Positions 11,598 to 31,830 of a stretch of 64,000 bases of DNA are shown in pieces. This DNA comes from Candidatus Babelota bacterium (GTDB lineage Bacteria > Babelota > Babeliae > Babelales > JACPOV01). Both the position numbers and the translations under genes were made by a program. The first letter of the stretch is position 1. Every line of letters begins with the position of its first letter. The stretch is from contig JACPOV010000008.1 in assembly GCA_016191325.1 (NCBI GenBank), forward strand, positions 718,351 through 782,350, given 5' to 3'. The notes beneath the pieces are model-generated. The model ran no database searches, was not told the origin of the DNA, and saw only the letters and a list, made by a program, of their open reading frames with translations.

Positions 11598-12359
11598 ATC
11601 GAGCCATTACTTCTTCTGCCAATTTTTTTATGCTGGGGTTCATTCCTTAACGTTGCCGCTTATAGACTCATTCACGGCGGATCAATCATTTTTGGCCGCT
11701 CTTCATGCCCACATTGCCATCACATTCTTTCTTGGCCAGAACTCATTCCTGTTGTTTCGTGGTTTGCGCTGCGCGGAAAATGCTTACATTGCAAAAAACC
11801 GATTTCTTGGCTTTATCCATTCATTGAATTGCTGACAGCCTTTATATTTTATAGAATGGTAACTCAATTATCATCCACTTATTGGATCGCGTATTCGATT
11901 TTCTTTTCTGCATTAATTATTACTATTCGTACCGATATTGAAACAATGCTTATATCAAGATTTGTAAGCGCATTTCTCATTCCGGTAGGATTTTTGTTAA
12001 GTATTTTCGATCTATTGCCCATAACTTTTGTGCAAAGTTGTATTGGGGCAATCTCAGCGTATGTTTTTTTATACGGGATTGGCTGGCTCTATTATAAATT
12101 TACTCACCGCGTTGGCATGGGGCAAGGCGATGTCGAACTCATCGGTATGATTGGCGCTTTCTTAGGCGCTCAAGGCTGGTGGGCTTCGCTTATGCTCGCA
12201 TCTCTTGTCGGTTCATTTTCCGGTGCAATCATTCTCTTTGCGATTTCTGCAAGTAAAACTGAAAAAATCAAGCTTCCCTTCGGACCGTTTCTTGCTCTGG
12301 GCGCATTGTGCTATGTATTCTATGCACACTCTTTAATGAAACTATTTCTAGGCTTCTAA
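11598..12359 (+). CDS. pilD: prepilin peptidase (A24 family, PilD/GspO-like); start codon non-canonical or unresolved
   Basis: The frame opening at 11595 encodes LIEPLLLLPIFLCWGSFLNVAAYRLIHGGSIIFGRSSCPHCHHILSWPELIPVVSWFALRGKCLHCKKPISWLYPFIELLTAF. This carries GSFLNV and two CxxC pairs and continues into track ORF 11829..12359, which has the catalytic Asp regions IRTDIETM and GMGQGDVELIGMIG. Track ORF 11653..11835 is in the wrong frame. Confidence 0.85.
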   Translation: MEPLLLLPIFLCWGSFLNVAAYRLIHGGSIIFGRSSCPHCHHILSWPELIPVVSWFALRGKCLHCKKPISWLYPFIELLTAFIFYRMVTQLSSTYWIAYSIFFSALIITIRTDIETMLISRFVSAFLIPVGFLLSIFDLLPITFVQSCIGAISAYVFLYGIGWLYYKFTHRVGMGQGDVELIGMIGAFLGAQGWWASLMLASLVGSFSGAIILFAISASKTEKIKLPFGPFLALGALCYVFYAHSLMKLFLGF

Positions 12360-12890: not shown

Positions 12891-13362
12891 GCGTAATTTT
12901 TATTTCATTGCGATGATCAACGGTGAGTCGATCGTCGGTACCATCCCCATCAATATCACCAATTGCTGCAGCTAGAAAAGTATTGGCATCAGCTTTGGTG
13001 TCGCCAAGGCTTGAACCACTCGCGCCCAATTTTCCAGTAAAACAACAATGACCTTCTTGGCCACTAAATCCATAGGTATAATAAAACCGTTCGTTTGCGC
13101 CGCCGCCTGAATATCCCTCCGGCTGCCATCCTGCGCCGTCTTTGCCAATAAGTTGCGTTGTATATTTTCCGTTTTCTGCCCAATACGCTTTTTCTGCTAA
13201 ATAAAGCGTTCCTAAATTCATATATGCTTCGGTCCGTTTTGCTTTTGCTAAAAATCTAAAAAAGCTTGGCATAGAAACCATCGATAGAAACGCGACGATC
13301 GCCACAACGATCATTAATTCAATTAAAGTAAATCCGCGACACTTTTGCGTGATCTTTTTCAT
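12874..13362 (-). CDS. type IV pilin / pseudopilin with class III signal peptide
   Basis: MKKITQKCRGFTLIELMIVVAIVAFLSM carries the prepilin cleavage/N-methylation motif (G|FTLIE). Strong SD (GGGGGGAGAA). The C-terminus has the Asp-rich loop GDIDGDGTDD. Confidence 0.9.
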   Translation of the reverse strand: MKKITQKCRGFTLIELMIVVAIVAFLSMVSMPSFFRFLAKAKRTEAYMNLGTLYLAEKAYWAENGKYTTQLIGKDGAGWQPEGYSGGGANERFYYTYGFSGQEGHCCFTGKLGASGSSLGDTKADANTFLAAAIGDIDGDGTDDRLTVDHRNEIKITHDDLA

Positions 13363-16471: not shown

Positions 16472-17209
16472 ATGGAAGCGTTTGAAAATGGACAATCACT
16501 TTGGAATCCACTTGGTTGGTTGGGAATAGAAAACGAACTGTTAAAGTTAAACGGTTCGACTATTATCAATACCTGGATTGTTCTTTTTGTTCTTATAACC
16601 CTCTTGATTCTCGCTCGTATCTTTATCGCAAAAAGTACAATTTTAGCGCACCTCATAAAGAAATCGGTACAAAGTCTTATCGATTTGATAGAGCAAAACA
16701 TGGGAAAATTTATTTATTCCCACTTTTTGATGGTTGCTGCACTTTTCCTCTTCATTCTTGGCTGCAATTGGGTGATTCTTTTACCATGGACAAAAGAACC
16801 TACTACCGACATTAATACAACACTTGCGCTCGCTGTAATAGCATTTTTCTATAAAGAAATTGCCTGCATACGCGCTCGTGGATGGTGGGGTTATTTAGAA
16901 GAATTTCTAGAACCGTTTTTTATTATGGCGCCCATCAATGTAATCGGCCATTTTTCAAAAATCATCTCTCTTTCGTTTCGTCTTTTTGGCAATATTTTTG
17001 GCAGCTCAATTATCATGGATTTGTACACGCACGTTATTTCTACATTTTGGCTTACGGAACTGCTTGGCCTTCTTTCTGGGCTTAATATCGTTGTCGTTCT
17101 TTTCTTTGGGCTCTTTGAAGGGCTCATTCAAGCATTTGTTTTCTCAATGCTCACCCTTACTTATATTGGTTTAGCGGTGCAAAAAGATCATCACGGCGAA
17201 AGTAACTAA
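16472..17209 (+). CDS. atpB: F-type ATP synthase subunit a
   Basis: 245 aa. Contains the conserved ISLSFRLFGNIFG (essential Arg) and EGLIQAFVFSMLTLTYI helices. Confidence 0.85.
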   Translation: MEAFENGQSLWNPLGWLGIENELLKLNGSTIINTWIVLFVLITLLILARIFIAKSTILAHLIKKSVQSLIDLIEQNMGKFIYSHFLMVAALFLFILGCNWVILLPWTKEPTTDINTTLALAVIAFFYKEIACIRARGWWGYLEEFLEPFFIMAPINVIGHFSKIISLSFRLFGNIFGSSIIMDLYTHVISTFWLTELLGLLSGLNIVVVLFFGLFEGLIQAFVFSMLTLTYIGLAVQKDHHGESN

Positions 17210-18159
17210 TGCTTAATCCATCAATTATACATTACTCGAGCTTAGCAAGCGTTATTGCACTCACCAGCTTGGGAGCAAGTTTGGGCGGTGCGCGCGCAAG
17301 TAAGGCGGCGGTTGAAGCAATAAATATCCAACCAGCATCAAAAGCAGAGATCACAAAGGTTACGATTGTTGGACTCGCCTTAATCGAAACTGCTGCAATT
17401 TTGGCACTTATTTTAATTTTACTTTTATTATTCAAAATTAAAGGATTGCCAACTCCCGCAATGGCCTACGCAGAGCTTGGCATTGCTGCAGGAATGGGCA
17501 TAACAGGATTTATTAGCGGATTGGTTTCAGCGGCCCCTGTTGTACAAACATGTTTTGCAATTGCGCGCCAACCTTTTTTTTCGCAACAGTTGATGAATCT
17601 TATGATCATTACCCAAACAATTATTCAAACGCCATTGATTTTTGTATTTCTTATTTCACTTTTTGTAACATTTCAAAGCACTCCTGAACTTACACTCAAA
17701 TCGGGAATTATTTTAATGTCGGCCGGAATTTGTATGGGGCTTGGATCTGTCGGTCCATCAATTGGTTTAGGAAGATTTGCCGAAACCGCGTGTAGAAGCG
17801 TCGGCATCAATAAAAAAGCATATAGTTATATTTTGCCGTTCACGCTCATGAGCGGAGCGTTTATTGAAACGCCTCTTATTTTTGCTTTTCTCGTTTCTCT
17901 CATTTTGCTTGGCAATATTTCAAGCGCCGATGCTTTTATTGGAATCCGTTCGATTTGTGCAGCGCTTTGCATCGGCGTTGGCACGTTCATGCCCGGTATA
18001 AGTTCAAGCAAAACCGCAAGTGCCGCATGCGAGCAAATGGCATTTCACCAAACAAGCTATTCGCGTGTTTCGCAAGTGAGTATGTTTGCTCAAGGAATAA
18101 TCGACGCGGCTGCCGTCTATGCTTTACTGACCGCCCTGTTTATAGTATTTCTTAAATAA
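17209..18159 (+). CDS. atpE: fused four-hairpin F-type ATP synthase c subunit (8 predicted TM helices)
   Basis: 316 aa. TAATG overlap with atpB. Four c-like helix-loop-helix units with ~80-aa period. Unit 1, SKAAVEAINIQPASKAEITKVTIVGLALIETAAILALILILL, aligns well to canonical c subunits. Ion-site residues are E60, Q140, E220, D299. Loop motifs are NIQP, ARQP, GINKK, FHQTS. Confidence 0.8.
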   Translation: MLNPSIIHYSSLASVIALTSLGASLGGARASKAAVEAINIQPASKAEITKVTIVGLALIETAAILALILILLLLFKIKGLPTPAMAYAELGIAAGMGITGFISGLVSAAPVVQTCFAIARQPFFSQQLMNLMIITQTIIQTPLIFVFLISLFVTFQSTPELTLKSGIILMSAGICMGLGSVGPSIGLGRFAETACRSVGINKKAYSYILPFTLMSGAFIETPLIFAFLVSLILLGNISSADAFIGIRSICAALCIGVGTFMPGISSSKTASAACEQMAFHQTSYSRVSQVSMFAQGIIDAAAVYALLTALFIVFLK

Positions 18160-18163
18160 GTAG

Positions 18164-18195
18164 CCCCACAGACCGCTGCGCGGTCGTTTGTGGGG
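18164..18195 (+). terminator. GC-rich stem-loop directly after the c4 gene (no U-tract)
   Basis: CCCCACAGACCGC ... GCGGTC GTT TGTGGGG: 13 bp in two segments with a 3-nt bulge and a 3-nt loop, followed by ACCCCAGAAG rather than a T run. Confidence 0.4.
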
Positions 18196-18252
18196 ACCCC
18201 AGAAGAAAAACGTAACAGTTTTTGTTTCTGTCAAAAAATATTTAAGGAAAGT

Positions 18253-19392
18253 ATGAAAAAAAAAGAAGTGCACGTTTTGTATATTATTACAAAACTGGAA
18301 TTGGGCGGCGCGCAGAAAGTATGTTTAGCTCTTTTAAATGGAGCGCAAGAACAAGGCCACACGAGTTTTTTAATTGCAGGCGATGGCGGCATTTTATCTC
18401 AATCGGTTGCACACAATAAAAATGTTTTTTTATTAAATTCACTAAAACGAGAAGCGAATTTCGCATCGATTTGGGCCGAATTGAAAGCATTTAAAGATCT
18501 TGTCGCACACATAAGAAAAATTAGAATTAATTTCCCGAACTTAATCGTGCATACTCACAGCACAAAGGCTGGCATTATAGGAAGATGGGCCGCATTTTTT
18601 GCCGGCGCTTCTCGGCGCGTTCATACGATTCATGGTTTTGCATTTCATGATCATCAATCATGGCCACTTTGGTTTTTAATCTATGTTCTTGAGCTTCTGA
18701 CAAGTTTTATCACAACGCATTATGTTTGCGTTTCTTCGTACGATGTGCGAAAAGCTATTAACTTATTTCCGCGCTTTGCAAAAAAACATTCAATTATTCG
18801 CGCTGCGGTTGATCCCGAACCGTTTTTTCACGCTTCACGAAAAACAACGTTCGAAACCAAAAATGATTTATTCACTTTTGGGACCGTATCGTGTTTTAAA
18901 AAACAAAAAAATCTTTTTGATATGCTTCAAGCATTCTCTTATGGATATGAAAAAAATAATTTAATACGCCTTGAGATTATCGGAGACGGCGCAATGCGCC
19001 CCTCGCTTGAAGCATGGATTGCTCAGCGTAATTTGCAAGACGTTGTTAAATTACATGGCTGGCAAGAGAACGTCGCACCAATTATGGCAACATGGAACGC
19101 ATTTCTTTTAAGTTCCCTCTGGGAAGGATTGCCGTGTGCAATAGTTGAAGCGCGACTTTTAAAACTTCCCGTGCTTTCTTATGATACGGGCGGTGTGCAT
19201 GACGTGATATTTAACGGCGAAAATGGATTATTATACAAACCAAAATATTGGCAAGAACTTGCGCAAGGTATGCTTTCGGTAAGCAGCAATCGATTATTGC
19301 ATAAAAAACTTTCGCAATTCAAAGATGATCTTTCATCATTTGATCAGAATGTAATGATCAATCAACACTTGCAGCTTTATCGTTCATTTTAG
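18253..19392 (+). CDS. glycosyltransferase, GT4-like (GT-B fold)
   Basis: Start moved to the ATG at 18253 (AAGGAAA SD; the track start lies inside the upstream hairpin). MKKKEVHVLYIITKLELGGAQKV N-terminus and the C-terminal EGLPCAIVEA motif are typical of the family. Confidence 0.8.
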   Translation: MKKKEVHVLYIITKLELGGAQKVCLALLNGAQEQGHTSFLIAGDGGILSQSVAHNKNVFLLNSLKREANFASIWAELKAFKDLVAHIRKIRINFPNLIVHTHSTKAGIIGRWAAFFAGASRRVHTIHGFAFHDHQSWPLWFLIYVLELLTSFITTHYVCVSSYDVRKAINLFPRFAKKHSIIRAAVDPEPFFHASRKTTFETKNDLFTFGTVSCFKKQKNLFDMLQAFSYGYEKNNLIRLEIIGDGAMRPSLEAWIAQRNLQDVVKLHGWQENVAPIMATWNAFLLSSLWEGLPCAIVEARLLKLPVLSYDTGGVHDVIFNGENGLLYKPKYWQELAQGMLSVSSNRLLHKKLSQFKDDLSSFDQNVMINQHLQLYRSF

Positions 19393-19457
19393 TGACTTTT
19401 TCCGATCGTTGCATTACGTTATCATACGTAATTGCGCTTTGAGGTGAGGGGAAAACT

Positions 19458-20420
19458 ATGACACAAAATCAAGTCGAAAAAAAAACGTCGATTCAAAAAC
19501 TAATTCCTAAAGAATATAAAAACGTTATTGAATCGATCGGCAATACACCGTTAGTTAAAGTGGATTTTGGAACGGCACCCTTGATGCTTGCAAAACTGGA
19601 TTATCTCAATCCAGGCGGCAGCATAAAAGATAGATCAGCACTTTATATGATTGAAGAAGCAGAACGTCTTGGCCTCTTAAAACCTGGCGGAACGATTATT
19701 GATGCATCTTCTGGAAATCAAGGAATCGCCAGCGCAATGATCGGTGCGGTTAAAGGATACAACGTTATCATCACCGTTTCTGAAAAAATCAGCAAAGAAA
19801 AATTGCAAACAATTAAAGCATACGGCGCGCAGGTTGTAATGTGCCCCGCTACTTCATACCTTGAAGATCCCAATTCCTATCACAGCAAAGCGGTAGAAAT
19901 TCATAAAAATACACCCAACTCATTTATGCCAAACCAATATTTCAATAAATCAAATGCGTGGGCGCATTATTATTCCCTCGGCCCTGAAATCTGGAATCAA
20001 ACGGACGGCATGGTAACTCACGTTTTTGCGGCAGTGGGAACCGGTGGCCATATGAGCGGATTAGGCAAATATTTAAAAGAAAAAAATCCGAACGTAAAAG
20101 TAATTGCGCTCGATTCAATTAATTCATGGCGCTCCACAAACGGAAATCCAAAGCCGTATAAAATTGAAGGAATCGGCGTAGATTTTGCATCGCCTGTTCT
20201 TGATTATTCAGTCATTGATGAATTTGTCGGCGTAAGCGATGAAGATGGGCTTGGTATGCTCAAAACAATGGCACGCCATCATGGCTTGCTCATTGGGCCA
20301 AGCAGCGGTGCAGTGGCTTATGCTGCATGCGAATATAGCAAAAAACTCAAAGCGACCGATGTTGGCGTTATGATTTTTGGCGATTCTGGAAGAGCTTATT
20401 TGACGAAAGATTTTTATTAA
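19458..20420 (+). CDS. PLP-dependent cysteine synthase / cystathionine beta-synthase family enzyme
   Basis: IGNTPLVKV, NPGGSIKDRSALYMI (PLP lysine), SSGNQGIASA and GTGGHMSG motifs. 320 aa. CysK, CysM and CBS cannot be distinguished by eye. Confidence 0.85.
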   Translation: MTQNQVEKKTSIQKLIPKEYKNVIESIGNTPLVKVDFGTAPLMLAKLDYLNPGGSIKDRSALYMIEEAERLGLLKPGGTIIDASSGNQGIASAMIGAVKGYNVIITVSEKISKEKLQTIKAYGAQVVMCPATSYLEDPNSYHSKAVEIHKNTPNSFMPNQYFNKSNAWAHYYSLGPEIWNQTDGMVTHVFAAVGTGGHMSGLGKYLKEKNPNVKVIALDSINSWRSTNGNPKPYKIEGIGVDFASPVLDYSVIDEFVGVSDEDGLGMLKTMARHHGLLIGPSSGAVAYAACEYSKKLKATDVGVMIFGDSGRAYLTKDFY

Positions 20421-20422
20421 TA

Positions 20423-21715
20423 TTAATCGAGCTCTTCAAGTTTAGATTGAGCACCAAATAATTTTGCTTCTGTTTTAAGAAGCTCGCTAATGCGGCGTGC
20501 ATTATCATAGCCATAGGGGGCAAACGCATGCTCTTCTTTATCAGCAAATTCACGAAATTTCTCAGCATATTGCACACGCGTCATCTGATCTCTCTTTTTA
20601 TCATCATTCTCTACAGCTTTCTTTAAACAAAATTGCATACATTTATAGATTAGAGGAATACTTATGATACCAGCGAGACCTATTACTTTAAAAACATTAT
20701 CTTCATCCTTTTTATTACTCAATTCGATATAACCCCTCGCAAACAAAGCACTTGGGATCCCTGCTGCAATACCAGTTAACAACAAGGCCTCTGGTTGGGA
20801 AACCAGTCTAAGATCGGTCTGGGCACTCTTGGCATTCTTGCTATTAAGAGATGCAAAATGCTGGTCTGCTTGATATTCCTGGTGCCTCCATAAAGACAAT
20901 CTATCTGCTTCTGGTATGGTTTTTCCTCCTATTTCCCACGTATACTGAAATGAATGTAACTTTTTTGCATGCCCTAATTCATGCATCAATAATGCTATTT
21001 GCTTATCTGTGTTCATTAGTGCACAACGCGGAGTAAAAACAAGACGTACCCCATCTTTTCTTGAACGGAAATCACAGTAGCCGATCCAAGAACTATTGGG
21101 AAAGTCATTGCTAACCTCAACATAAATTTTCATTTTTTTAAGATCATCATCGCAAGAGACAATTTCTTCTAATTTCTCTCGCAATGGTTTAAAAAGCGAT
21201 ATTTTAACTAATTTTGAATAAATAATCCCAGGTTCTTTACAAAATTTTTCTTTTTTTTCCTGGCAATATTTAGAAACCGCAGAATATAATTCGCCAGGGG
21301 CATTAAATTTATCACCAAAATCTTTTTGCTGTATTTCATCAAAAATTCGCTCAGTGCGCTTATCCAAAAATTTGTGCACAAACTTCGTCACCGTCTGATT
21401 ATTTGCATGAATAGCGCGAACAAAACTTTCTTGAGGATTTACTTTCTGGGTGACGCGCTCTCGATAAGAGCGAAAATAACTATCGATCGTAGTTGGGTTA
21501 TCTTTTTGCCAAACTGTGTTCAATAATGCTTTTTCATTAAATTTTTCTGCAATACCAATTCCCAAAGCTGCTGGCTGAGGCGTGTTAGCTTGCCTAGAAA
21601 TTGTTTGTTTATTGGCGAATTTTTGCAAACCTTGAAAATCGGCATACGATGCCGAGGCAAAATTGTATAAAAAAAGGCAAATAATTATTTTCATTTTATT
21701 CATAAAATATCCCAT
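20423..21715 (-). CDS. secreted HExxH zinc metallopeptidase-like protein (M48-like) with C-terminal TM segments
   Basis: Signal peptide (MKIIICLFLYNFASASYA), LLMHELGHAKK followed by EYQADQHF (HExxH ... ExxAD pattern), and two hydrophobic helices near the C-terminus. Start ambiguous among 21715, 21703 and 21694. Confidence 0.6.
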   Translation of the reverse strand: MGYFMNKMKIIICLFLYNFASASYADFQGLQKFANKQTISRQANTPQPAALGIGIAEKFNEKALLNTVWQKDNPTTIDSYFRSYRERVTQKVNPQESFVRAIHANNQTVTKFVHKFLDKRTERIFDEIQQKDFGDKFNAPGELYSAVSKYCQEKKEKFCKEPGIIYSKLVKISLFKPLREKLEEIVSCDDDLKKMKIYVEVSNDFPNSSWIGYCDFRSRKDGVRLVFTPRCALMNTDKQIALLMHELGHAKKLHSFQYTWEIGGKTIPEADRLSLWRHQEYQADQHFASLNSKNAKSAQTDLRLVSQPEALLLTGIAAGIPSALFARGYIELSNKKDEDNVFKVIGLAGIISIPLIYKCMQFCLKKAVENDDKKRDQMTRVQYAEKFREFADKEEHAFAPYGYDNARRISELLKTEAKLFGAQSKLEELD

Positions 21716-21820
21716 AATTGATTACTTTATTATAGTATCAAATTTGATATTTTTTTCAAGTTGAATAAAATTGGCCAAATTTATAGCCATTTTAACAGAT
21801 ATACATCAGTTTGAATTGAC

Positions 21821-21875
21821 GTGATGGTTTTTTGGTGATTCGGGAAGAGCGTATTTAACAAAAGATTTTTATTAA
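21821..21875 (+). pseudogene. relic of the last ~18 codons of a cysteine-synthase-family gene (diverged direct repeat of 20367-20420)
   Basis: GTGATGGTTTTTTGGTGATTCGGGAAGAGCGTATTTAACAAAAGATTTTTATTAA encodes VMVF(+1 T)GDSGRAYLTKDFY*. The intact gene end is VMIFGDSGRAYLTKDFY*. There are 7 substitutions, 6 of them synonymous third positions, plus one extra T. Confidence 0.75.
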
Positions 21876-22456
21876 TAATACCCGAGACATTTCGTAAAGT
21901 TCCTCACGATGCCCGCGCTAACAGCACCAGTTACAACCAAAATAGTAAGATGGGCAATATAAGCTCTCGAAAAAGGATCATATACGCGCGGCCATTCGCT
22001 CAAACGGTGAAGCTGTGTCCCTTGTTTTTCGTACAAGGCATATGACCTAATATCCGCTTGCCTGATAAGGTCTTTTTTGCCTAAAATGAACGATTCTCCA
22101 ATGTGCTCAACGTCTTCTTTTTTTCCAAAATGGTGAGCAAAAGAATTCGCTTCATAATAAGAATGATATTTTAATAAATTTCTGGGGTTACGCGTCTCAA
22201 CGCGAACAACTTTTTTTCTTTCCTCAAATTGATTTATCGGAATCTGCGAAAATGTTTCTTGATCATCAAATTCATCCGATTTAATAAAAATGCGCACTTC
22301 GCCTGTTTGAGCCGGTTCGTCTTTTGGATCCATTTCAATGCGTGCAGGATGAGCATACTTTTGCTCAACACTCAATACCCAGCGCGGTAAGCAAGCATGT
22401 GTAATAAGTGTTAGATTAAAAAGTATCACCGAAAAAATAGTTGTTATAAAATTCAT
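21872..22456 (-). CDS. secreted/tail-anchored hypothetical protein, tandem paralog A
   Basis: Signal-like N-terminus and C-terminal TM (HLTILVVTGAVSAGIV). IRSYALYEKQGTQLHRL matches ISSYAVFKRSGTHLKKI of the next gene. Confidence 0.6.
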   Translation of the reverse strand: MNFITTIFSVILFNLTLITHACLPRWVLSVEQKYAHPARIEMDPKDEPAQTGEVRIFIKSDEFDDQETFSQIPINQFEERKKVVRVETRNPRNLLKYHSYYEANSFAHHFGKKEDVEHIGESFILGKKDLIRQADIRSYALYEKQGTQLHRLSEWPRVYDPFSRAYIAHLTILVVTGAVSAGIVRNFTKCLGYY

Positions 22457-22968
22457 TTACAGCTTCCGAATACATAAGAATCAACACAACATAAAGCACA
22501 TGCTACAACTATTTGCGCTCCAAAAAAATGATACGGCTTACTATCTATCAATGGGTGATAACTATTTTGTGAATTATTAGACTCCAATTTTCTTTCATAA
22601 ATTTTTTTTAAATGAGTTCCACTTCTCTTGAACACTGCATAAGAAGAGATATTCAACTGATAATTTGCATCAAGACGCTCCGATGGTTTCTTTTTGTACC
22701 ATTGATCAAAAAAAGGCACCGAGTCATAAAAGGATACTAATTTTTTACCATTCTTATCCAAACAAATGGTTTGAACGATTTTCTCACTTCTTCTGTTAGA
22801 TCGTCCGCTGATATCAATGATTTCACCCATCGAAATGTTCCGAATCCGGTCTTGATATACTATGTCTTTGTAATTCTTACTAAATAAAATCTTAATTTTG
22901 TTGGGGTGCTCTTCTGCATTGATGGAAAAAACCATAAGTAATTGCAAAATAAAAAAACGTTTGATCAT
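22453..22968 (-). CDS. secreted/tail-anchored hypothetical protein, tandem paralog B
   Basis: Signal peptide MIKRFFILQLLMVFSINA and a C-terminal hydrophobic Cys-rich helix. 4-nt overlap with the downstream paralog. Confidence 0.6.
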   Translation of the reverse strand: MIKRFFILQLLMVFSINAEEHPNKIKILFSKNYKDIVYQDRIRNISMGEIIDISGRSNRRSEKIVQTICLDKNGKKLVSFYDSVPFFDQWYKKKPSERLDANYQLNISSYAVFKRSGTHLKKIYERKLESNNSQNSYHPLIDSKPYHFFGAQIVVACALCCVDSYVFGSCK

Positions 22969-23074
22969 AGAGCCTGCAAGTAAAAATTAAATTTTTCTCG
23001 CACTAAAGATACCAATTTTTTGCAAATAATAAAGGCTTGCGCAAAACCGACAACCTTTAAAAATAATTATTCTT

Positions 23075-25447
23075 TTAAAAAGGTTTTTTTCTTTTTTGGT
23101 ATTCGCGCCAGATAATTGTAGCGCCGATGAGAGCAATAAAGAATATTAGCATGAAGATTCCGCTCGTTAAGGAATGCGAAGCTGCATAATTCTTTTTTTC
23201 TTCAGGTTGCATTCGTTTGCCAGAAACATTCCCTTTCGTTCCTTCTTCCATTGGCCCTTGATAGGGGTCGATTTCTCGATAGGGAGAGAACGGAGCAGTT
23301 GGCATGCCTTCTTTTGCATAACCAAATGGCTGAGCTAAAGGTTTTTGTTCTTGCGTTTGGCTCGCTTTTTCTGATGGCGTAGCGGGAATTGAATAACCTC
23401 CGTAAGGAAGTTGATTTCGCTCGCCCGTATCAAAGAAACCGGGTATGGACGGATAAGCTGCGGAATTGCGAGTTACGGATGAATTTCTATAACGATCTCC
23501 GGGCGCAAACGATTGATTGAACTCTCTTATTGGCAAAGTTCCTGTAGACTCGTATGGGGCATTGTCAGTTGATCTCGCGCGATTGCTTGATGAAGGTATT
23601 ATTCTTGATCTGCCCGGCTGTATTCGTGACCAAGGAGTAAATTCAATCTTGTCGTACGCTTTTTTAATTTCTGGTAATTTACCCTCGAACTGTTTTTTTT
23701 CAGAACTAGGCAATTTTGAATCTTTTTCAATACGCAGCATTTCATCTTTCTTATCAACTATTTTTTCCGGAACTGCTGATATTTCTGGAGAAAGAATTAT
23801 CTGCTCTTTTTCGCTTATTGCTTTCTTTGCATCTTTTTGACTATCAGCTTTTTTAATTTTCTTGAAAGCATTTTCATCATCTCCTGCAACATCACCAATT
23901 CTTGGGCGCTTAATTGTCGGTGGTAAATTCCCGCCTGCTACAATCGCTTGTTGCAACTGAAGAGTTCCTGGTTTTAGTTCTATCAAAGCTTGTTGGCGTG
24001 CAACATCTTGAAAAACCCCTTCTTTGAGAGCGGCAGATTCTTTAATGATACTCTCTTGCTCTTCGGGCGGTAAATTTTCGCCTGAGACGATCGCTTGTTG
24101 CAGCTCAAGAGTTCCTGGTTTTAATTCTATCAAAGCCTTCTCGCGCGCAATTTCTTGAGTGGCCCCTTCTTTTAGAGCCGCGGATTCTTTAACAATACTA
24201 TTTTGCTCTTCTTTGTTTTCTTGCGATTTTGGCATGCTAATTTCTAACTCTTTGCCTATTTGCTCAATCGATTGCGCAGGAACTCGAGGTTCCACTTTTT
24301 CTACTGCCTTGCTAACTGGCTCTTGAATATTCTTTTCTATAATTGTTTCCGGTTCCGGCGCGATTTGAACGATTGGTTCAGCTACGAACGGAATAGGGGG
24401 AATGATTTGTGCAGGAGAAACTACCGGTATAATGTAGTTTGATTGGCCAAAGTTCACCGGTTCGGTAAGCGCACGATATTTTTGCTCACTAATTTGCGGG
24501 CGCTGTTGTTCACGCTCTGCATTAATCGCAAGAGCATTAAGTCGCTCAACCGTTGTGCCAAATAAATTTCTTAGTATTGCGTCATCCGGAAGTTGAATAA
24601 CATCTTGCCTTGAGTTGTAACCGCTTAAACGGGCCATATCAACTACTAATTTTTTAATCAATTGCTGTACCTGAGGAATTGCTAGCCCTTTCAATGAGCC
24701 AATGCGCATTGCAATTTGAGCGACAGATTGAGATCCATATCCTTCAAACGGAATCATTTCTTTTGATTCTTCTTGCGGCAATTGCTCTAAAACGTGCTGC
24801 GCAATCGTATCAAAACCCGCAAGTATCAATTCAATTTTCCTTTGTTCTATTTGCGGCCGGGTAAGTGCTCGTTGCTCAAAACGTTGCTGAGCAATCTCTT
24901 GCCCTTCTATTTCGCTTAGTGCAGGAACAAATTCTTCTTGCTCCAGCTCCGGTTCTATAAGAGAAAGCTCTTGGTACATCGGATATTCAATTGCCGGATA
25001 TTCTTTTTTTACCGACTCAGTTTTTTTAATCGTTGCCTGTTTTTCAGCTTGGCTTTTTATTTTTTGTGCCATTTGAGCGGGAGTTAATATTGTTCTTTGA
25101 GAAGGCGCTGGCTCAATCTCTTGCTCTACGGGTTTTTCTAGAGGTGCAGAATAGACAGGAAAAAGGGGTTTAGTAAATTGGAATGACTTAATTGTTTGGG
25201 TAAATCTTTGAAGATAGGTAGGCTGAGCTGATTTTTCTGGCTCAATCGCTGGAGTTATGCTTGCTCCTGAAAATGCAGGCGTCACAGTTTTCGTTTGCAC
25301 CGGCCTAATTGTAGGGGATTGCTTCGTTTTGCGTATTGGCTGTGCAGGCTTTTTAAACTGTATACGGCTAGAAGCAGTACCAAATATTCCTGCAAAAGCT
25401 TCTACGCTTAAAAGTGATAATAAACTAAGGAATAATAATTTTTTCAT
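23075..25447 (-). CDS. large secreted, P/E/Q-rich low-complexity protein with C-terminal membrane anchor
   Basis: Start moved to the ATG at 25447 (AGAGG upstream). Signal peptide MKKLLFLSLLSLLSVEAFA, long disorder-like sequence, a 49-aa tandem repeat, and C-terminal TM SGIFMLIFFIALIGATIIW followed by REYQKRKKPF. Confidence 0.7.
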   Translation of the reverse strand: MKKLLFLSLLSLLSVEAFAGIFGTASSRIQFKKPAQPIRKTKQSPTIRPVQTKTVTPAFSGASITPAIEPEKSAQPTYLQRFTQTIKSFQFTKPLFPVYSAPLEKPVEQEIEPAPSQRTILTPAQMAQKIKSQAEKQATIKKTESVKKEYPAIEYPMYQELSLIEPELEQEEFVPALSEIEGQEIAQQRFEQRALTRPQIEQRKIELILAGFDTIAQHVLEQLPQEESKEMIPFEGYGSQSVAQIAMRIGSLKGLAIPQVQQLIKKLVVDMARLSGYNSRQDVIQLPDDAILRNLFGTTVERLNALAINAEREQQRPQISEQKYRALTEPVNFGQSNYIIPVVSPAQIIPPIPFVAEPIVQIAPEPETIIEKNIQEPVSKAVEKVEPRVPAQSIEQIGKELEISMPKSQENKEEQNSIVKESAALKEGATQEIAREKALIELKPGTLELQQAIVSGENLPPEEQESIIKESAALKEGVFQDVARQQALIELKPGTLQLQQAIVAGGNLPPTIKRPRIGDVAGDDENAFKKIKKADSQKDAKKAISEKEQIILSPEISAVPEKIVDKKDEMLRIEKDSKLPSSEKKQFEGKLPEIKKAYDKIEFTPWSRIQPGRSRIIPSSSNRARSTDNAPYESTGTLPIREFNQSFAPGDRYRNSSVTRNSAAYPSIPGFFDTGERNQLPYGGYSIPATPSEKASQTQEQKPLAQPFGYAKEGMPTAPFSPYREIDPYQGPMEEGTKGNVSGKRMQPEEKKNYAASHSLTSGIFMLIFFIALIGATIIWREYQKRKKPF
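23918..24211 (-). repeat. 2 x 147-bp in-frame tandem repeat inside the 790-aa gene
   Basis: GGTAAATT anchors at 23922 and 24069 give a 147-nt period. Encoded units are ESIIKESAALKEGVFQDVARQQALIELKPGTLQLQQAIVAGGNLPP and NSIVKESAALKEGATQEIAREKALIELKPGTLELQQAIVSGENLPP. Confidence 0.8.
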
Positions 25448-25536
25448 CTTTTCCAACCTCTTTTAATTCAACTATTAGTATAACTGATTTTGCAAAATTT
25501 TCAATCAGTAATTAATTAAGGTGCGGAAAAGTGATA

Positions 25537-25562
25537 TTTTTTTATAGCGCCCTATAAAAAAA
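25537..25562. terminator. AT-rich palindromic hairpin 5 nt downstream of the 25568 gene
   Basis: TTTTTTTATAG CGCC CTATAAAAAAA: a perfect inverted repeat with a 4-nt centre. Confidence 0.45.
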
Positions 25563-25567
25563 GCTAA

Positions 25568-25918
25568 TTACTCGCCTATTTGATTAGAGCAAGAAAACAA
25601 AGAGAAAAGGCCTAAAGAATGAGTTCTATTTATTTGCTGCGAGCGTACTTTGCTTATTTCTTGCGGTTTCGGTTCAAAATGGGATTTCTTTCTGCGGTTT
25701 CGCAAACCGGTTTCTTCATTCTCTTCTGTTTTTTCCATAATCATAGCTTGCGGCTGCTCAGAATCATATGAACGGCAGGATGGAAGAACTTGTTCATTTT
25801 GAGGTTGTTCTATAACTTTTTTAACCTCAACTTTAACAACGATTGGCTTTGGTAGCGGCAAATATTGCGTTGCTTCACTATTTAAAAATATTAATACAGC
25901 GACATACTGCAATTTCAT
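25568..25918 (-). CDS. small secreted protein, hypothetical
   Basis: Start moved to the ATG at 25918 (AAGGAAGAG SD 4-5 nt upstream). Signal-like MKLQYVAVLIFLNSEA, then basic/Glu-rich sequence. Confidence 0.5.
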   Translation of the reverse strand: MKLQYVAVLIFLNSEATQYLPLPKPIVVKVEVKKVIEQPQNEQVLPSCRSYDSEQPQAMIMEKTEENEETGLRNRRKKSHFEPKPQEISKVRSQQINRTHSLGLFSLFSCSNQIGE

Positions 25919-26124
25919 AACTCTTCCTTTGTTCCAAGAGTAGAAAATATGAGCTTCGTTAACTATCCTACCTGTTTTACGGCTGAGCGCAAACCAAGAA
26001 AAACATTCACCAAATAATTTTTGGTTCAAAAAATTAGAAAAAACGTTCTCATTTTAGATTATTTTTAGCATTCTCATCTATTTTCTATACACTAAAGTGA
26101 AATTTTATTTTAGGGAGACAACTA

Positions 26125-27405
26125 ATGCACGGCCTCAAAAAACATATCCTCTCAATAATAGTAGTGACGAAATTTTACTGTATATCGGCAATGGAACCGC
26201 AACCTGCACCAGAAATTGTTTCCTATGCTCAAGAATTCGCGCAGGATGAGATTCGCCCAGAGCTTCTTGAGCAATTGCTTGCTACGTGCCCCAAACTGAA
26301 GCAATTGGTTTTCCGTTTACAAAATCCTCTCCGCTATGGCAGAACAATCCCTACTAAACTTTTGCTCGTTGGCCCTCCTGGAGTTGGCAAAACTACTATT
26401 GCAAAAGGAATTGCTTCACTCATTAATCGCCCCTATATATTTCTTCGAGCATCGTTACTCACAAATGAATATAAAAATTCTGGGCCGCAAAATTTAGCGC
26501 GCGAAATAATACCTATTTTACAAAGCGGGCAACCTTATGTAATCATCGTGGATGAACTGCATGCGCTCACTGAAAATTATAAAAAAGACCACAATGCAGA
26601 TCCAGGAACTGCAGAAGCATTATGGTCGATTCTCGATGAATGCGCCAAAAATCCACAAGTTCTTTTTATTGGTACCACCAATGATGCTGTAAAACTTCCA
26701 GAACCGCTCAAAACAAGATTTGCAAACGGGATCATTGAAATACCACTGCCAAATCTTGAACAGCGAACTAATATTATTAAATATTATTTACACAACATCT
26801 CTTACACATTCGACAGATCATATTTTACAACTCTGGCAAAACAAACGAATCAACTTTCGGGTCGCAATCTTGAGCAACTAGTTTCTGATGCGATTACGTA
26901 CGCTTTAGATCGAGAAGAAATTCCGATGATTAGAAAAAAAGATTTTGAGCGCGCTTTGAAGGATATGAATGAAAATCAAAGTTCATTGGCATTGTTGGGC
27001 TGGGAAAAACATAAGCAATTTTTAAAAGATAACGCCACAACTATCGCCACGATTATTGGTATAGGTGTAAGCCTTGTTGGGCTCGCAATGCAATACTGGT
27101 CGATGCAGCGACAAATTTCCCTTCAGTTAGTTGCGCAAAACGCGCAAATAGACCAAAATAAAAAATTTCTCGATCATCAAGTAAAAGTGCAAAATGAGCA
27201 ATTTACTATCGAACAGGGAAACAAAGAAAAAAAAGCAAACCAGTCTGCGTTCATACAAAAAACTGGTGCCGGCGCGGGTATAGTTACAGGAGCATTTACA
27301 TTAGCTGCATCATTCCCACCCCTTTGGCCAGTAGCTTACGTAATTGGTGGTAGTGGAGCATTGATGGCTGCTGATGCATTTGATCAGAATTGGAGCAAGA
27401 TGTGA
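26125..27405 (+). CDS. membrane-anchored classical-clade AAA+ ATPase
   Basis: N-terminal hydrophobic anchor (ILSIIVVTKFYCISA), Walker A LLLVGPPGVGKTT, Walker B YVIIVDELH, sensor-1 region FIGTTN, PEPLKTRF. C-terminal TM TIATIIGIGVSLVGLAMQYW and Gly-rich helix GAGAGIVTGAFTLAASF. GGGAGA SD. Confidence 0.8.
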   Translation: MHGLKKHILSIIVVTKFYCISAMEPQPAPEIVSYAQEFAQDEIRPELLEQLLATCPKLKQLVFRLQNPLRYGRTIPTKLLLVGPPGVGKTTIAKGIASLINRPYIFLRASLLTNEYKNSGPQNLAREIIPILQSGQPYVIIVDELHALTENYKKDHNADPGTAEALWSILDECAKNPQVLFIGTTNDAVKLPEPLKTRFANGIIEIPLPNLEQRTNIIKYYLHNISYTFDRSYFTTLAKQTNQLSGRNLEQLVSDAITYALDREEIPMIRKKDFERALKDMNENQSSLALLGWEKHKQFLKDNATTIATIIGIGVSLVGLAMQYWSMQRQISLQLVAQNAQIDQNKKFLDHQVKVQNEQFTIEQGNKEKKANQSAFIQKTGAGAGIVTGAFTLAASFPPLWPVAYVIGGSGALMAADAFDQNWSKM

Positions 27406-30368
27406 TTTTTTCCAAAGCACGAAAAAAACTCTCTAAGAAAATCTTATTCGCTGCATTCGTTTCATTCAGCTTTTCAACATTGCAATCTATGGCAATACCG
27501 TGGCAAACCATTGCACCGACTCTTGCAAATTTAAGCTACGGATGCGGAGCTTTAGTTAATAAACTCTTAAACACACAGCGCCATAGCATTCCATCTCCAG
27601 CTCAACAAATACCAATTACTCGCGCGCCTCTAATTTTAAGCGTTAGGCAATCCTCGATCGCCCCAATTAGATCATTATGCATAAAATCGCCAATCGAAAC
27701 CTACAGCAGAGCGCTTCATTGTAAATTGCAACAGAATTTACCTACAGCGCTTCTCAAAAACCCCGCTTCGACCGCAACGCCAAAACTACGATTGGGTCAC
27801 CTGCCCTCAGCTCGTGGCAAAAGCGAAATTTATAAAACGAAAACTGCATCATCGCTCCTAAAATTGCCTCAAGTCAGGCCAGATTTGCAGTATGTAAAAC
27901 CTAAAAGCGCTTGGGAATCTTTTATCGATAAATTAACAATAACAGTCGTTCCACATGATATTGATTATCGCACATATGGCGCAGTCTCCGATCTGCATCG
28001 AGCTACCGTCGAACAGCAATCCCTCATCAACCAATACCAGCAAAATGGCATGTTCCATGTGCTAGAACAGAACGTTGCAAAATTTCAATCAATCTTATTG
28101 GATCTCTCGCGATCAGATCCTCAAGGCGTTATCGCGCGCAATAAATTTTCTGAATTGCAAGCACCTTTGCCACTCGCCCAGCATTATCTTAATGATTTTA
28201 AAACATGCATAAAAATGTTTGCTTTTGATAAAGCAGATACCATAAAACAAAACCTTTCGAAAGTTGATTCATTTTATATAGCAGCTCATTGTCAATCATT
28301 TATACAACGAAGCTTCGGCGCTCAAGCAGCAGCCGATTTTGTAAAAATGGGATGCGAACAAAAAATTCCTGGGTACCTTGAACTCAGCGGGCAAGTAAAA
28401 TATGGAAATATTTTTTCTCGAGCGCGTCGATGGTTTGCAGGATGTAAAACTGGATTCCGTTCAAATGAATTTAATCCGCATCATATTCTTGAAAATAGCT
28501 TTAATCAAAAGATAACGCACGTACGAACATTATGCGAAAACCAAAAATTCCATTTAGCTCATGCTTATATTCAGCAATCGTCAGGGGAAAGCAAGCAAAG
28601 TTTGCTGGGTGTTTATGGGGAATATTTTAAACAAAGCTATAATCAACTTGGTATCGAGCGCTGTTATGAAAATGATCCTTTTTTTGCGCAAATTTCATCC
28701 CAACTTAAATATAGTAGCGTACCCAGCGCAGGCCTCAATGATGTTTTTAAATCACGCCACGATATGTTCAATGCCATTAAGCAAACATGCGCTATCCCTA
28801 ACAACGCTGACGCGTTCAGCAATTCTTTAATGTGGCATCTAGTTGATCAATGCGGAAATAACGCAACTCCAAAGCAGATGGTGAGCGATTTAGCTGTTCT
28901 GTGCAAAGATAGCGCAGCCAAAACAATTTCTGGAGCGTATCATCATTTTTTTGATGGCAACGGGATCTTTAAGCTCTTAAATTATGATAAATCTAACTTT
29001 GCGCATCTTTCTTTTCATGAATCGATTCACCATGAACGCAATACTCACACACGAATCTTCTTAAATGATCTTATACAGATTCCGTGTACAACCAAGCAAC
29101 AGTTAGAGGCTTTTTCAAGCGCCCTAAATCACCTAAACCAATCATGCAAAAATCCTTCCCTAGCTACGCAACATATGACGTTCGCGCAAGACATTGCCAA
29201 TGCGCTCTCAAATCCTGATTACGACCAAAAAATTATTTCCTGCGGCGATTTTAGTAAATATGATATGCGCCTTCTTAAACTTGGATCCGAAATAATTACC
29301 GCTAAGAATAATACGAATGTTCAGCTTGCTGACATGCAAGAGCTGAATGCTGCATTGGCGCAACTAAACGATGCTGGAATCGCACGCTTGAATGGAGATT
29401 ATTATCTTTCAGAACACCTAACCAACAAAACCTTAGGATCGCTCGATATTGAATCAAGCAGTTTTTGGCAGCAAGAAAAAACGAGCTTTATAAAACCGAT
29501 ATCCGCTGATTTAAAAACATCATTTTTCAATATTCAATCTCCCAAAACTCAAGAAGCTGCCCCTTCTAAAAATAGTTTTGCAAACGGTTTTGCGGCCGCC
29601 GTGGGAGCTCGAGCATTGCAGCAGGCTTTTTCTGGAAATTCTTTCGCGCCAGCACCTTCAGCTAATTATTCACAGACGCAAACAGATGCCGCTAGTGCGT
29701 GCCCGCAATGTGCAAACGATGCAGACGCAATTCATGAGTATTTTGACTATTTAAATCAAGGCGGCCAACCTGTTGCCATTTCTGGCGGACAGGCTGATGC
29801 TGCTCAAAAGGCAAAAGAAGACGATTGCAATGAAGCGCCGACAAAATTATCACTTTTAGAACAAATAGAATTAGCAAGAAAAGCAAATGATTATTTCCGG
29901 GAACAAATTGCGAAATATGAAGCTGAAATCGTTGAGGCGATAAAGAAAAAGCTCAAAGAAAATAATTTAAATTATGAACCAACGATTCACGTTAAAGATA
30001 TTAATATGAAACACATCATGTTTACAGAATCGAGAGGCAAAAACCCAGTCGGATTACATTCAAAACGCTGGAATCCTGAACGAATAGTTACGGCAAGCGT
30101 CCGCCCTTGCAAATTCAATACAAGCCATGGGAAAGTTCAGCTCAATTGCATCACTAAACCTTCAACCTTTTTCCCCGATAGCTGGAATGAATTCATGATT
30201 GTTGATAAAATTTTTGAAGCATTAAAGAATATTATTAACGTAAATACAATAAGCAGTAAATTAATAATAAAAGGAATTACGCAAGAACAAATCTATATTG
30301 AATTACATCTTGAAAGTGGAGGTTTAATTTCAACGGCCTATCCATCATTTAAGGATTTATGCATTTAG
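27390..30368 (+). CDS. large secreted protein with C-terminal EndoU-like RNase (polymorphic-toxin type) domain
   Basis: Starts at TTG 27390 or GTG 27402, the latter overlapping the AAA stop as GTGA. Signal peptide KKILFAAFVSFSFSTLQSMA. The last ~128 aa (nt 29982-30365) carry KHIMFTE, VGLHSKRW, KPSTFFPDSWNEFMIVDKIFEALKN and LISTAYP. These parallel the EndoU His/His/Lys motifs and the bacterial EndoU hallmarks. Confidence 0.65.
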   Translation: MEQDVIFSKARKKLSKKILFAAFVSFSFSTLQSMAIPWQTIAPTLANLSYGCGALVNKLLNTQRHSIPSPAQQIPITRAPLILSVRQSSIAPIRSLCIKSPIETYSRALHCKLQQNLPTALLKNPASTATPKLRLGHLPSARGKSEIYKTKTASSLLKLPQVRPDLQYVKPKSAWESFIDKLTITVVPHDIDYRTYGAVSDLHRATVEQQSLINQYQQNGMFHVLEQNVAKFQSILLDLSRSDPQGVIARNKFSELQAPLPLAQHYLNDFKTCIKMFAFDKADTIKQNLSKVDSFYIAAHCQSFIQRSFGAQAAADFVKMGCEQKIPGYLELSGQVKYGNIFSRARRWFAGCKTGFRSNEFNPHHILENSFNQKITHVRTLCENQKFHLAHAYIQQSSGESKQSLLGVYGEYFKQSYNQLGIERCYENDPFFAQISSQLKYSSVPSAGLNDVFKSRHDMFNAIKQTCAIPNNADAFSNSLMWHLVDQCGNNATPKQMVSDLAVLCKDSAAKTISGAYHHFFDGNGIFKLLNYDKSNFAHLSFHESIHHERNTHTRIFLNDLIQIPCTTKQQLEAFSSALNHLNQSCKNPSLATQHMTFAQDIANALSNPDYDQKIISCGDFSKYDMRLLKLGSEIITAKNNTNVQLADMQELNAALAQLNDAGIARLNGDYYLSEHLTNKTLGSLDIESSSFWQQEKTSFIKPISADLKTSFFNIQSPKTQEAAPSKNSFANGFAAAVGARALQQAFSGNSFAPAPSANYSQTQTDAASACPQCANDADAIHEYFDYLNQGGQPVAISGGQADAAQKAKEDDCNEAPTKLSLLEQIELARKANDYFREQIAKYEAEIVEAIKKKLKENNLNYEPTIHVKDINMKHIMFTESRGKNPVGLHSKRWNPERIVTASVRPCKFNTSHGKVQLNCITKPSTFFPDSWNEFMIVDKIFEALKNIINVNTISSKLIIKGITQEQIYIELHLESGGLISTAYPSFKDLCI

Positions 30369-30757
30369 TAAAAATAAAACTTACCCCTTATTATCATATT
30401 GCATACGCGACGTCTGAGCCATTAAAGCTTCTGGGCTTTTTCTTAGAAGACTTTGGATCTGAAATTGGAATTGAGATTTTACGCTCAATTGTCATTGATA
30501 AATTACAAGACTGTACGTCGGGCAATAAAACATCACTATATACATTAAAAAATGGAAATTTGTGTATTACTATATTATTTCCAGACAAGAAAGATCCTGT
30601 ACGGTTAGAAATAACACCTGAAACGTTGCTTCAGGTTACAAAATTATATTTGGAAGCAGAAAAAAAACGACCAGCCGAAATTATTATTAAATTGGATCAT
30701 TCAATGGAAAATCCAACGATAGAAACTATACTATATTGTCCTCTTAATAAGGCCTAA
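30359..30757 (+). CDS. putative cognate immunity protein (132 aa, cytoplasmic)
   Basis: The ATG overlaps the toxin ORF end by 10 nt. No signal peptide. Small acidic protein. The assignment rests on position only. Confidence 0.4.
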   Translation: MHLVKIKLTPYYHIAYATSEPLKLLGFFLEDFGSEIGIEILRSIVIDKLQDCTSGNKTSLYTLKNGNLCITILFPDKKDPVRLEITPETLLQVTKLYLEAEKKRPAEIIIKLDHSMENPTIETILYCPLNKA

Positions 30758-30760
30758 AAT

Positions 30761-31201: not shown

Positions 31202-31320
31202 GGCGCTAAGAATTTCATCTCGAAGTTATTTTATTTAAGGAATTTTGAGAAAGCAAACAGCTCTTTTTTTTACACTTTTTGATCGCTCTAACCCGTAATC
31301 ATAAATTCAAGGAAATTATT

Positions 31321-31776: not shown

Positions 31777-31790
31777 ATATTAGTCAGGGC

Positions 31791-31830
31791 AAAAAAAACC
31801 CCTATCCAGACAGAACGTCGTGGACAGGGG
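31791..31830 (-). terminator. rho-independent terminator for the minus-strand ferredoxin/ligase/glycosyltransferase operon
   Basis: CCCCTATCCA (31799-31808) pairs with TGGACAGGGG (31821-31830) at 9/10. It is preceded on the plus strand by A8, which gives a T8 run after the hairpin on the minus strand. Confidence 0.65.

Follow-up and report, generated by a model that had tools for sequence, protein, structure and literature searches.

Why should the last codons of a housekeeping gene be found twice in a bacterial genome, once as the working end of the gene and once as an orphan fragment beside the next gene? This question is raised by a 64-kb stretch of DNA (hereafter the window) from an uncultivated member of Candidatus Dependentiae (Babeliales; locus tags HYX58_), which we refer to as W. 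Dependentiae are associated with protists. In the window, the 3′ end of an intact cysteine-synthase-family gene (cysK) recurs downstream as an untranslatable relic, and a single gene, encoding a putative metallopeptidase, lies between the two copies on the opposite strand. We found the same arrangement in a sister species and an empty site in several other relatives, in which cysK is followed directly by the kind of gene that now adjoins the relic. The best account of this locus, to which we give about an even chance of being correct, is an old insertion without a dedicated recombinase, with its target duplicated within the lineage in the common ancestor of W and the sister species.

Two copies of a gene end

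The cysK gene (19458-20420, plus strand) is intact and encodes a product of 320 amino acids (aa) that belongs to the pyridoxal phosphate (PLP) fold-type II proteins and is CBS/CysK-like (Pfam PALP, E = 9e-70). NCBIfam CBS/CysK models also match this product, at scores below their equivalog cut-offs. The functional copy of the repeat (copy 1; 20362-20431, plus strand) consists of the last 19 codons and the stop of cysK, to 20420, plus 11 nucleotides (nt). The relic (copy 2; 21816-21886, plus strand) contains an orphan version of the same 19 codons and stop, to 21875. The match between 20362-20420 and 21816-21875 spans 59 and 60 nt, respectively, at 86% identity, and perhaps extends to 70 and 71 nt. 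A repeat search of the window reported 20374-20431 against 21829-21886 (58 nt, 86%) as the sole repeat of its kind, and self-BLAST aligned 20362-20431 with 21816-21886 (71 columns, 83%). By our rough binomial estimate, 50 matches in 58 positions would be expected about 1e-10 times among all pairs of sites in the window. The copies share an identical run of 17 nt at 20406-20422.

A preliminary description of the window had reported that the last 17 codons and the stop (20367-20420; VMIFGDSGRAYLTKDFY and stop) recur at 21821-21875 with seven substitutions, namely, six synonymous third-position changes and one Ile/Val replacement, together with one extra T. It had also noted weak similarity past both stops and a single opposite-strand peptidase-like gene (20423-21715) between the copies. 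All of these readings are confirmed in the sequence, in which the extra T belongs to a T-run. The match starts 5 nt upstream of the limit given there (TTGGCGTTATG against TTGACGTGATG, 9 of 11 positions identical), and its onset at 20362 and 21816 is abrupt, with no similarity farther upstream. Past the stops, 11 nt more of homology were found, with 8 of 11 positions matching (P of about 0.01 for a chance extension, by our random-walk estimate). In copy 1, these terminal 11 nt hold the last two codons and the stop of the convergent peptidase gene.

The end of cysK reads GTT ATG ATT TTT GGC ... TAT TAA. The relic cannot be translated as part of anything, with an in-frame TGA three codons upstream of its GTG ATG and a frameshift caused by the extra T. 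A second assembly from the same lineage as W (Logan SRR12113392) has a relic that is the same at every base, the extra T among them. The relic recurs in the sister species (hereafter S; GCA_036260945.1, locus L081), a different species that was independently assembled and has also been assembled from several SRR128441xx runs. S is collinear with W at 82-90% nucleotide identity, and its relic reads VMIFGDSGRAYLTKDFY and stop, with no frameshift. The DNA between the copies contains only the minus-strand ORF (open reading frame) of 430 aa at 20423-21715 and an AT-rich spacer of 96-100 nt. As a separate observation, a perfect 8-bp inverted repeat, GAAGAGCT (20389-20396) and AGCTCTTC (20430-20437), surrounds both stop codons, that of cysK and that of the peptidase gene, and has been conserved in S. 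A hairpin acting as a terminator in both directions is a candidate function, which we note without claiming it (fold z-score −0.8, not significant).

A second gene end could also stem from a duplication of the whole gene, in which case the relic would be all that is still recognizable of a complete paralog over which the peptidase gene was later written. A pattern that points in this direction comes from another cysK locus of Dependentiae (L021), in which the relic is longer: upstream of its 43 well-kept codons, a weak similarity broken by indels continues for about 20 codons. For W, cysK was compared with 20421-21875 by sensitive tblastn and blastn searches, which recovered only the relic, in a match limited to the terminal 14-17 codons. 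This effectively refutes the decay of a longer paralog in W, in agreement with the preliminary description. In addition, the homology stops abruptly at 21816 in both W and S, and the 1.38 kb between the copies is occupied by a complete opposite-strand gene with its own promoter region. We consider tandem duplication of the whole gene followed by decay to be extremely unlikely.

Which copy is the older can be read from the neighbouring genes. Downstream of the relic lies p194 (21872-22456, minus strand), the ancestral neighbour convergent on cysK, which belongs to a clade-restricted family of small tail-anchored or secreted proteins. Its paralog p171 (22453-22968, minus strand) follows as the next gene of a variable island. 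Five outgroup loci were available for the end of cysK (L001, L002, L003, L167, and L168). In L001 and L168, cysK is followed directly, at the DNA level, by an opposite-strand gene of the p194 family, and the two stops have 4 nt in common (..TAT TAA.. on either strand). The same geometry was found in L002, where the p194-family gene is broken. In BLASTP comparisons with the 174-aa gene of L001 that is directly convergent on cysK, p194 had an E-value of 7e-9 and p171 one of 3e-9. A hidden Markov model (HMM) of the p194 family matched only in W, S, L001, L002, and L168, always in a position adjoining the end of cysK or the relic; the protein search with p194 itself found W and S only. A closer relative (hereafter J; Joint Genome Institute, JGI, 3300047160), with a cysK 87% identical to that of W, was read by its gene table only; there, three convergent genes (192, 201, and 716 aa) come after cysK, and a peptidase gene is missing. 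The 192-aa gene of J is likened to p194 by size, order, and orientation only. In the more distant L167 (81%), cysK is followed by a gap of 127 nt and then by a block of glycosyltransferase family 4 (GT4) and AMP-binding genes, which in W lies 11.5 kb away at 31985-34676.

The empty site that the preliminary description had proposed to look for in relatives was thus found, in L001 and L168 as DNA, in L002 with a broken gene, and in J from the gene table. These sites confirm that the 1.4 kb between the copies is a real insertion. The junction between the relic and p194 in W (21872-21875) has the same TTAA stop overlap of 4 nt as the empty sites, and the relic is followed by this old downstream neighbour in both W and S. 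Because p194 adjoins the relic in the geometry of the empty sites, the relic is the original gene end, still on its old neighbour, and the peptidase gene and the present end of cysK are the newcomers.

Age of the insertion and similarity of the copies at its origin

The order in S is the same as in W: cysK, the peptidase gene 2 nt after its stop, the spacer, the relic, and the ortholog of p194. The insertion is older than the split between W and S, since S carries the same insert and relic, and it is younger than the split from J. For reference, divergence between W and S at 4-fold degenerate sites is 0.29 when pooled and 0.40 in cysK.

The preliminary description had drawn three conclusions from the synonymous bias of the differences: that both copies had evolved as working genes, that incoming DNA had brought its own diverged gene end, and that a local duplication did not fit. 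These were not borne out by four-taxon parsimony on 59 nt, in which the intact and relic copies of W and S were compared. Only 2-4 of the 59 positions differ between intact copy and relic in both species, and one of these differences is non-synonymous. The changes on this branch are a second-position G/A (GGC against GAC/GAT, Gly to Asp), GTT/GTG, and at most two more, in TCN and ACN codons. Most of the differences postdate the event. Terminal changes number 1-3 in the intact copy of W, 4-6 in the intact copy of S, 3-4 plus the indel in the relic of W, and 1-2 in the relic of S; those of the intact copies are all synonymous because the intact gene is still under selection. An Arg codon is AGA in all four copies of W and S and CGN in the five outgroup loci. 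Because of the few fixed differences and the common derived AGA codon, the copies must have been almost identical when the repeat arose, and they are each other's closest relatives. In W and S, the new gene end had therefore not yet diverged from the resident one when the event took place. Near-identity at the origin fits a duplication within the lineage, or within the same population, at least as well as an import, and the synonymous bias seen in W largely reflects drift of the functional copy after the event, under purifying selection.

We favor, for these near-identical copies, a duplication of the target in the lineage or population of the common ancestor of W and S. Under this account, cysK and the p194-family gene would ancestrally have been convergent, with common ends and with stops overlapping in TTAA. 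A segment of about 1.38 kb (20432-21815), comprising the peptidase ORF and its AT-rich promoter region, would then have been placed exactly between two copies of about 60-70 nt. Copy 1 would complete cysK and, if the 11-nt extension is real, would also give the peptidase gene its last two codons and stop; copy 2 would complete p194 and leave 19 orphan codons of cysK. The peptidase ORF terminates inside the 11-nt extension, with CTC GAT TAA against CTC GGG TAT TAT TAA in p194. Because cysK and p194 had their ends in one and the same stretch of DNA, an insertion could have kept both intact only by duplicating that stretch. This selective argument, which we infer, would explain why a relic is seen at all. 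Candidate routes would include fill-in of a staggered break, a template switch during replication, a short tandem duplication followed by insertion at the joint, and a single crossover of a circle that carried the segment. The choice among such molecular routes is the part that we infer; the repeat, its polarity and relative age, the near-identity of the copies at their origin, and the lack of mobile-element genes are what the comparisons themselves establish.

Several points weigh against a duplication within the lineage. The relics are less decayed than expected for neutral sequences of their age, and that of S has no first- or second-position change in 17 codons. Our Poisson estimate for this low decay is P of about 0.002-0.02, under a model of local duplication with a neutral relic in which half of the third-position divergence falls on the relic. 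An imported gene end with a recently displaced native end would also give such low decay. In two further cysK loci (L014 and L021, described below), the differences between relic and intact copy are likewise mostly synonymous. The similarity past the stop amounts to 8 matches in 11 nt. Moreover, neither a source copy of the peptidase gene nor a donor was found.

The low decay may have a regional explanation. Synonymous divergence between W and S is unusually low in a block at about 21626-22450 that includes p194, in which 5 of 61 4-fold sites differ and non-synonymous divergence (dN) is about equal to synonymous divergence (dS). Within this block, the relic is the most diverged part (7 of 59 sites plus the gap), and the spacer (21716-21811) is 96% identical, with 4 of 96 sites different. 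The simplest reading is that the block may derive from a later exchange between the lineages of W and S; a constraint at the nucleotide level that we did not recognize could also have produced it. This block may account for the low decay of the relics, yet it also shows that the locus recombines between lineages. The p171, p793, and p153 genes are unusually diverged between W and S, at 68-79% nucleotide identity.

Could the relic have been retained because it has a function? This possibility concerns persistence and is compatible with any of the origin models; the relic might serve as the 3′ untranslated region of p194, as sequence upstream of the peptidase promoter, or as an RNA element. The relic lies between the stop of p194 and a terminator-like hairpin, upstream of a promoter-like site, and the 175-nt minus-strand spacer folds better than shuffled sequences (z-score −3.0). 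Its 7 differences in 59 sites between W and S are fewer than expected from the 0.29 at 4-fold sites genome-wide (P = 0.001). In L014, the relic precedes the old downstream gene by 60 nt; in L021, that gene starts 4 nt past the stop of cysK. On the other hand, the 4-fold divergence of p194 is equally low and its dN is about equal to dS, so the effect is regional and more likely due to recent exchange, with the relic as the most diverged part. Rfam searches of the repeat region and of the whole window returned nothing relevant, the sole match being RNase P at 49917-50258. The relic of W tolerates an indel and 3-4 substitutions, and only two species are available for the comparison. Conservation of the relic as proof of function was dropped because the whole block has low synonymous divergence, and we consider retention by function unlikely.

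Cargo and candidate routes of insertion

The inserted gene (20423-21715, minus strand) encodes an M48-like HExxH metallopeptidase of 430 aa, as judged from its motifs and a weak Pfam M48 score. The N-terminus of its product is signal-peptide-like, and the C-terminal half includes two hydrophobic helices. The motifs HELGH (H245, E246, and H249) and EYQADQ (E280-Y-x-A-D-Q) are invariant in the four family members. Like the M48 peptidases of the HtpX/Ste24/BepA type, these proteins have HExxH followed by an E-x-x-A-D motif and membrane helices, and a paralog in the same genome passes the Pfam gathering score. The differences are that the protein of W itself scores 16.3 bits, below the cut-off of 20.3, and that the family is otherwise an orphan; the paralogs P0125 (22.2 bits) and P0128 (22.0 bits) are both above the cut-off. 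An AlphaFold2 model had a mean predicted local distance difference test (pLDDT) score of 41.9, which is too poor for a fold search or comparison.

A search of 5.8e9 proteins with the peptidase found the protein itself and an ortholog in S with 59-62% identity, and nothing else. A profile search of 1.84e9 representatives added one protein, HYX58_01255, which is encoded elsewhere in the genome of W, is 27% identical, and has an M48 score of 22.2 bits. Neither search found a donor arrangement or a source copy. P0128, the ortholog of the same-genome paralog P0125, is found at an unrelated locus (L166) with no cysK or p194 neighbour in its gene table and gives no clue to the source. Because the family is known only from the orthologs in W and S and the same-genome paralog, the cargo is a lineage-restricted M48-like metallopeptidase and not an obvious import from a distant taxon. 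The preliminary description had proposed a comparison of composition with the flanks; the GC content of the peptidase gene (0.364) and that at third codon positions (GC3; 0.295) are within 1.5 standard deviations of the genes of the window, and foreignness of the insert was not significant. We also considered the peptidase gene as a tandem duplicate of a neighbour and ruled this out, since it has no similarity to p194 or p171.

Between W and S (20423-21715 against L081 10001-11308), the peptidases have 62% amino acid identity and normal synonymous divergence of 0.2-0.5 per 30-codon bin. Up to 21 of 29 amino acids differ in the central bins of the catalytic domain, suggesting relaxed or positive selection. 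Because the synonymous divergence is ordinary, these data are consistent with vertical inheritance of the gene since the split and with fast evolution at the protein level. The spacer that came with the insert (21716-21815, minus strand; GC content 0.21) contains, according to consensus scans only, promoter-like hexamers for the peptidase gene (TTGAAA at 21759 and TACTAT at 21732) and a weak terminator-like hairpin downstream of p194 (21789-21772).

The account that competes most directly with a duplication within the lineage is an import. DNA from a related member of Dependentiae, carrying its own 3′ part of cysK and the peptidase gene, would have recombined homologously inside cysK and illegitimately on the other side, or entered as a circle by a single crossover, and the resident end would have been displaced. 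As the conserved border of a hypervariable island that differs even between close relatives, cysK is a natural homologous anchor for such events, and the three events recorded at cysK have different cargo and junctions of 19, 13-14, and at least 43 codons. The relics have few first- and second-position changes relative to their third-position divergence from the intact copies, and a published proposal invokes this model for displaced 3′ ends in effector-immunity arrays of type VI secretion systems (T6SS) and in rhs loci (PMC5361080). However, the copies of W and S differed at no more than 2-4 of 59 positions at the species split, with one non-synonymous difference and the AGA codon in common, so the donor must have been closer than the sister species and the term foreign becomes moot. 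The donor arrangement is also missing from both protein searches. Should the 11 nt of homology in the tail of p194 be real, the unit that was duplicated came from a genome in which cysK and p194 already overlapped. Third-position divergence of cysK between L014 and L021 is uniform, with no jump toward the 3′ end, although this is uninformative as a test for a crossover point inside the cysK of L014. On balance, we regard the import of a gene end as a possible but doubtful origin.

Alternatively, the locus may be what is left of a phage-like element or an integrative and conjugative element (ICE), with an integrase that targeted the 3′ end of cysK, as e14 targets icd, with a replacement gene end carried in its attP, and with all genes lost but one. 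Direct repeats of a 3′ end that flank an insert, together with empty sites in relatives, form the pattern known from icd/icdC (PMC13626634), and the identical run of 17 nt could be an attachment (att) core. Yet a Pfam scan that covered 46 of the window's 50 ORFs of 150 aa or more detected no recombinase, transposase, or phage domain, which bears out the preliminary description in that no integrase is visible. There was likewise no recombinase in the Pfam-annotated gene tables around the locus in S, and none was apparent in the ORF lists of the L014 and L021 inserts (secreted, WD-like, and ldh genes, the WD-like and ldh genes being identified by tblastn, with no Pfam scan). No more than 1.45 kb separates the repeats, the one gene that they enclose looks native and has a paralog in the same genome, and repeat lengths and boundaries differ between independent events. 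A tRNA scan of the window was negative, and none of the inverted repeats reported by a repeat search of 18000-24000 lies at the ends of the insert. A decayed integrative element is thus very unlikely. The analogy with att-site duplication that the preliminary description had drawn holds for the form of the locus, with its direct repeats of a 3′ end and its empty sites; it fails for the lack of a recombinase and the variable repeat lengths.

Insertion of a transposon or insertion sequence (IS) was also rejected, with no terminal inverted repeats reported, no transposase domain in the 46 scanned ORFs, and a repeat of 60-70 nt. Transposases typically leave target duplications of about 2-15 bp on either side of an element that has a transposase gene and terminal inverted repeats. 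As in those duplications, direct repeats of the target flank the insert at cysK; unlike them, the repeat is 60-70 nt long, and neither inverted repeats nor a transposase was found.

Two known systems resemble the cysK scar more closely. At e14 in Escherichia coli K-12, and also with phage 21, a second copy of the 3′ end keeps icd intact, and the displaced end remains as an orphan fragment, icdC, at the far border. The differences between the copies are conservative, and e14, of about 15 kb, excises by SOS-induced site-specific recombination (PMC13626634). The scar has in common with it a 3′-end copy at the near border that keeps the gene whole and an orphan C-terminal fragment at the far border; it differs in that its 1.4-kb insert has a single native-looking gene and neither a recombinase nor any sign of being mobile, and in that the copies were near-identical at their origin. 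In rhs loci and T6SS effector-immunity arrays, C-terminal displacement has been proposed to occur via homology-facilitated illegitimate recombination (PMC5361080). These loci are similar in having a conserved upstream anchor, an old 3′ end pushed downstream beside its old neighbour, no integrase, and variable junctions. They differ in that they encode polymorphic toxins, the variable 3′ end is itself the cargo, and arrays build up. At cysK, the duplicated end comes from a housekeeping enzyme and is not the selected part, and the evidence from W and S favors a duplication within the lineage.

The cysK border and its island

Are such relics recurrent at cysK? We scanned the cysK loci of Dependentiae, 42 from genomes and 53 from metagenomes, with the tail of each gene itself and found two further cases, L014 and L021. 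In L014, the relic consists of 13-14 codons and lies 580 nt downstream (8874-8912 against 9491-9535), with a gene for a secreted protein of 174 aa between the copies; the old downstream gene that it precedes by 60 nt is WD-repeat-like. In L021, the relic lies 3.2 kb downstream (8787-8929 against 12140-12280), after two WD-repeat-like genes and a disrupted ldh, and the contig ends 370 nt past it. Two relatives of these loci, L018 and L024, have a plain arrangement of cysK and ldh. Because the three events differ in repeat length (19, 13-14, and at least 43 codons), junction, and cargo, the comparison argues against a fixed att site at the end of cysK, which seems unlikely. A self-BLAST survey of 1.1 Mb of cysK loci, with roughly a thousand genes besides cysK, yielded just two more candidates for gene-end relics, namely, 3′-end orphans in L005 (10699-10734 against 13212-13247, 36 nt at 94%) and L015 (786-838 against 2076-2129, 54 nt at 93%). 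With three fossils in about 95 loci, cysK looks over-represented among gene-end relics, in a comparison that is rough since every locus was chosen for cysK.

On its upstream side, cysK closes a gene block that has been conserved in many Dependentiae and consists of atpB, a 316-aa c-subunit-like gene, a GT4 glycosyltransferase gene, and cysK. The downstream sequence differs between all relatives. The region between cysK and the minus-strand GT4/AMP-binding genes (20421-31984) is a hypervariable island, with gene sets that differ among L001/L168, J, S, and W. It is absent in L167, where the 127-nt gap contains a hairpin instead. The products of the island are mostly signal-peptide or tail-anchored proteins without Pfam families. 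As judged from these comparisons, cysK is the fixed border of an island that has grown stepwise in this clade.

Several features of the island and its surroundings are recorded here. A segment of about 5.8 kb (25994-31787) is present in W and absent from S; it contains genes for an AAA ATPase (26125-27405) and a 992-aa protein (27390-30368) and an ORF of 165 aa. The 992-aa protein, with a weak EndoU-nuclease-like C-terminus, is possibly a polymorphic toxin. The secreted-looking 793-aa protein p793 contains a tandem repeat of 147 nt (49 aa) with 82% identity (23919-24211). In the conserved block, the 316-aa protein (17209-18159), 3′ of the gene for ATP synthase subunit a, has weak ATP-synt_C matches only, and many loci of Dependentiae have it in this position; in place of the usual c subunit of about 80 aa, it looks like a fused version with multiple hairpins. 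Farther upstream, a 54-nt inverted repeat (8829-8882 and 8964-9017; 78% complementary, with an 81-nt loop) lies just 3′ of a Glu/Gln-tRNA-synthetase-family gene and has no Rfam or tRNA match.

The three fossils raise the broader possibility that the 3′ end of cysK is a recurrent, integrase-free entry point at which an island of secreted or host-interaction genes grows in Dependentiae. Because genes abut or overlap there, each addition at this border would have to duplicate the gene end and would leave a datable fossil. We put this forward tentatively, as something that may be true in the group and that we would not expect to hold with confidence.

The cysK scar is a new example of a known feature, the displaced gene end, and nothing in the evidence points to a mobile element or to a mechanism that is new. 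It offers a base-by-base view of how a compact genome gained a gene between two genes with overlapping ends, and the relic serves as a dated marker of that event, after the split from J and before that of W and S. The locus also illustrates that a synonymous bias in the differences between a gene end and its relic is alone no proof of foreign origin, given that synonymous sites go on drifting in the copy that survives. If any aspect might merit a broader survey, it is the repeated use of the cysK border. For the biology of these bacteria, the finding flags this border as the growing edge of an island of fast-evolving secreted proteins, which would be a sensible place to look for host-interaction genes.

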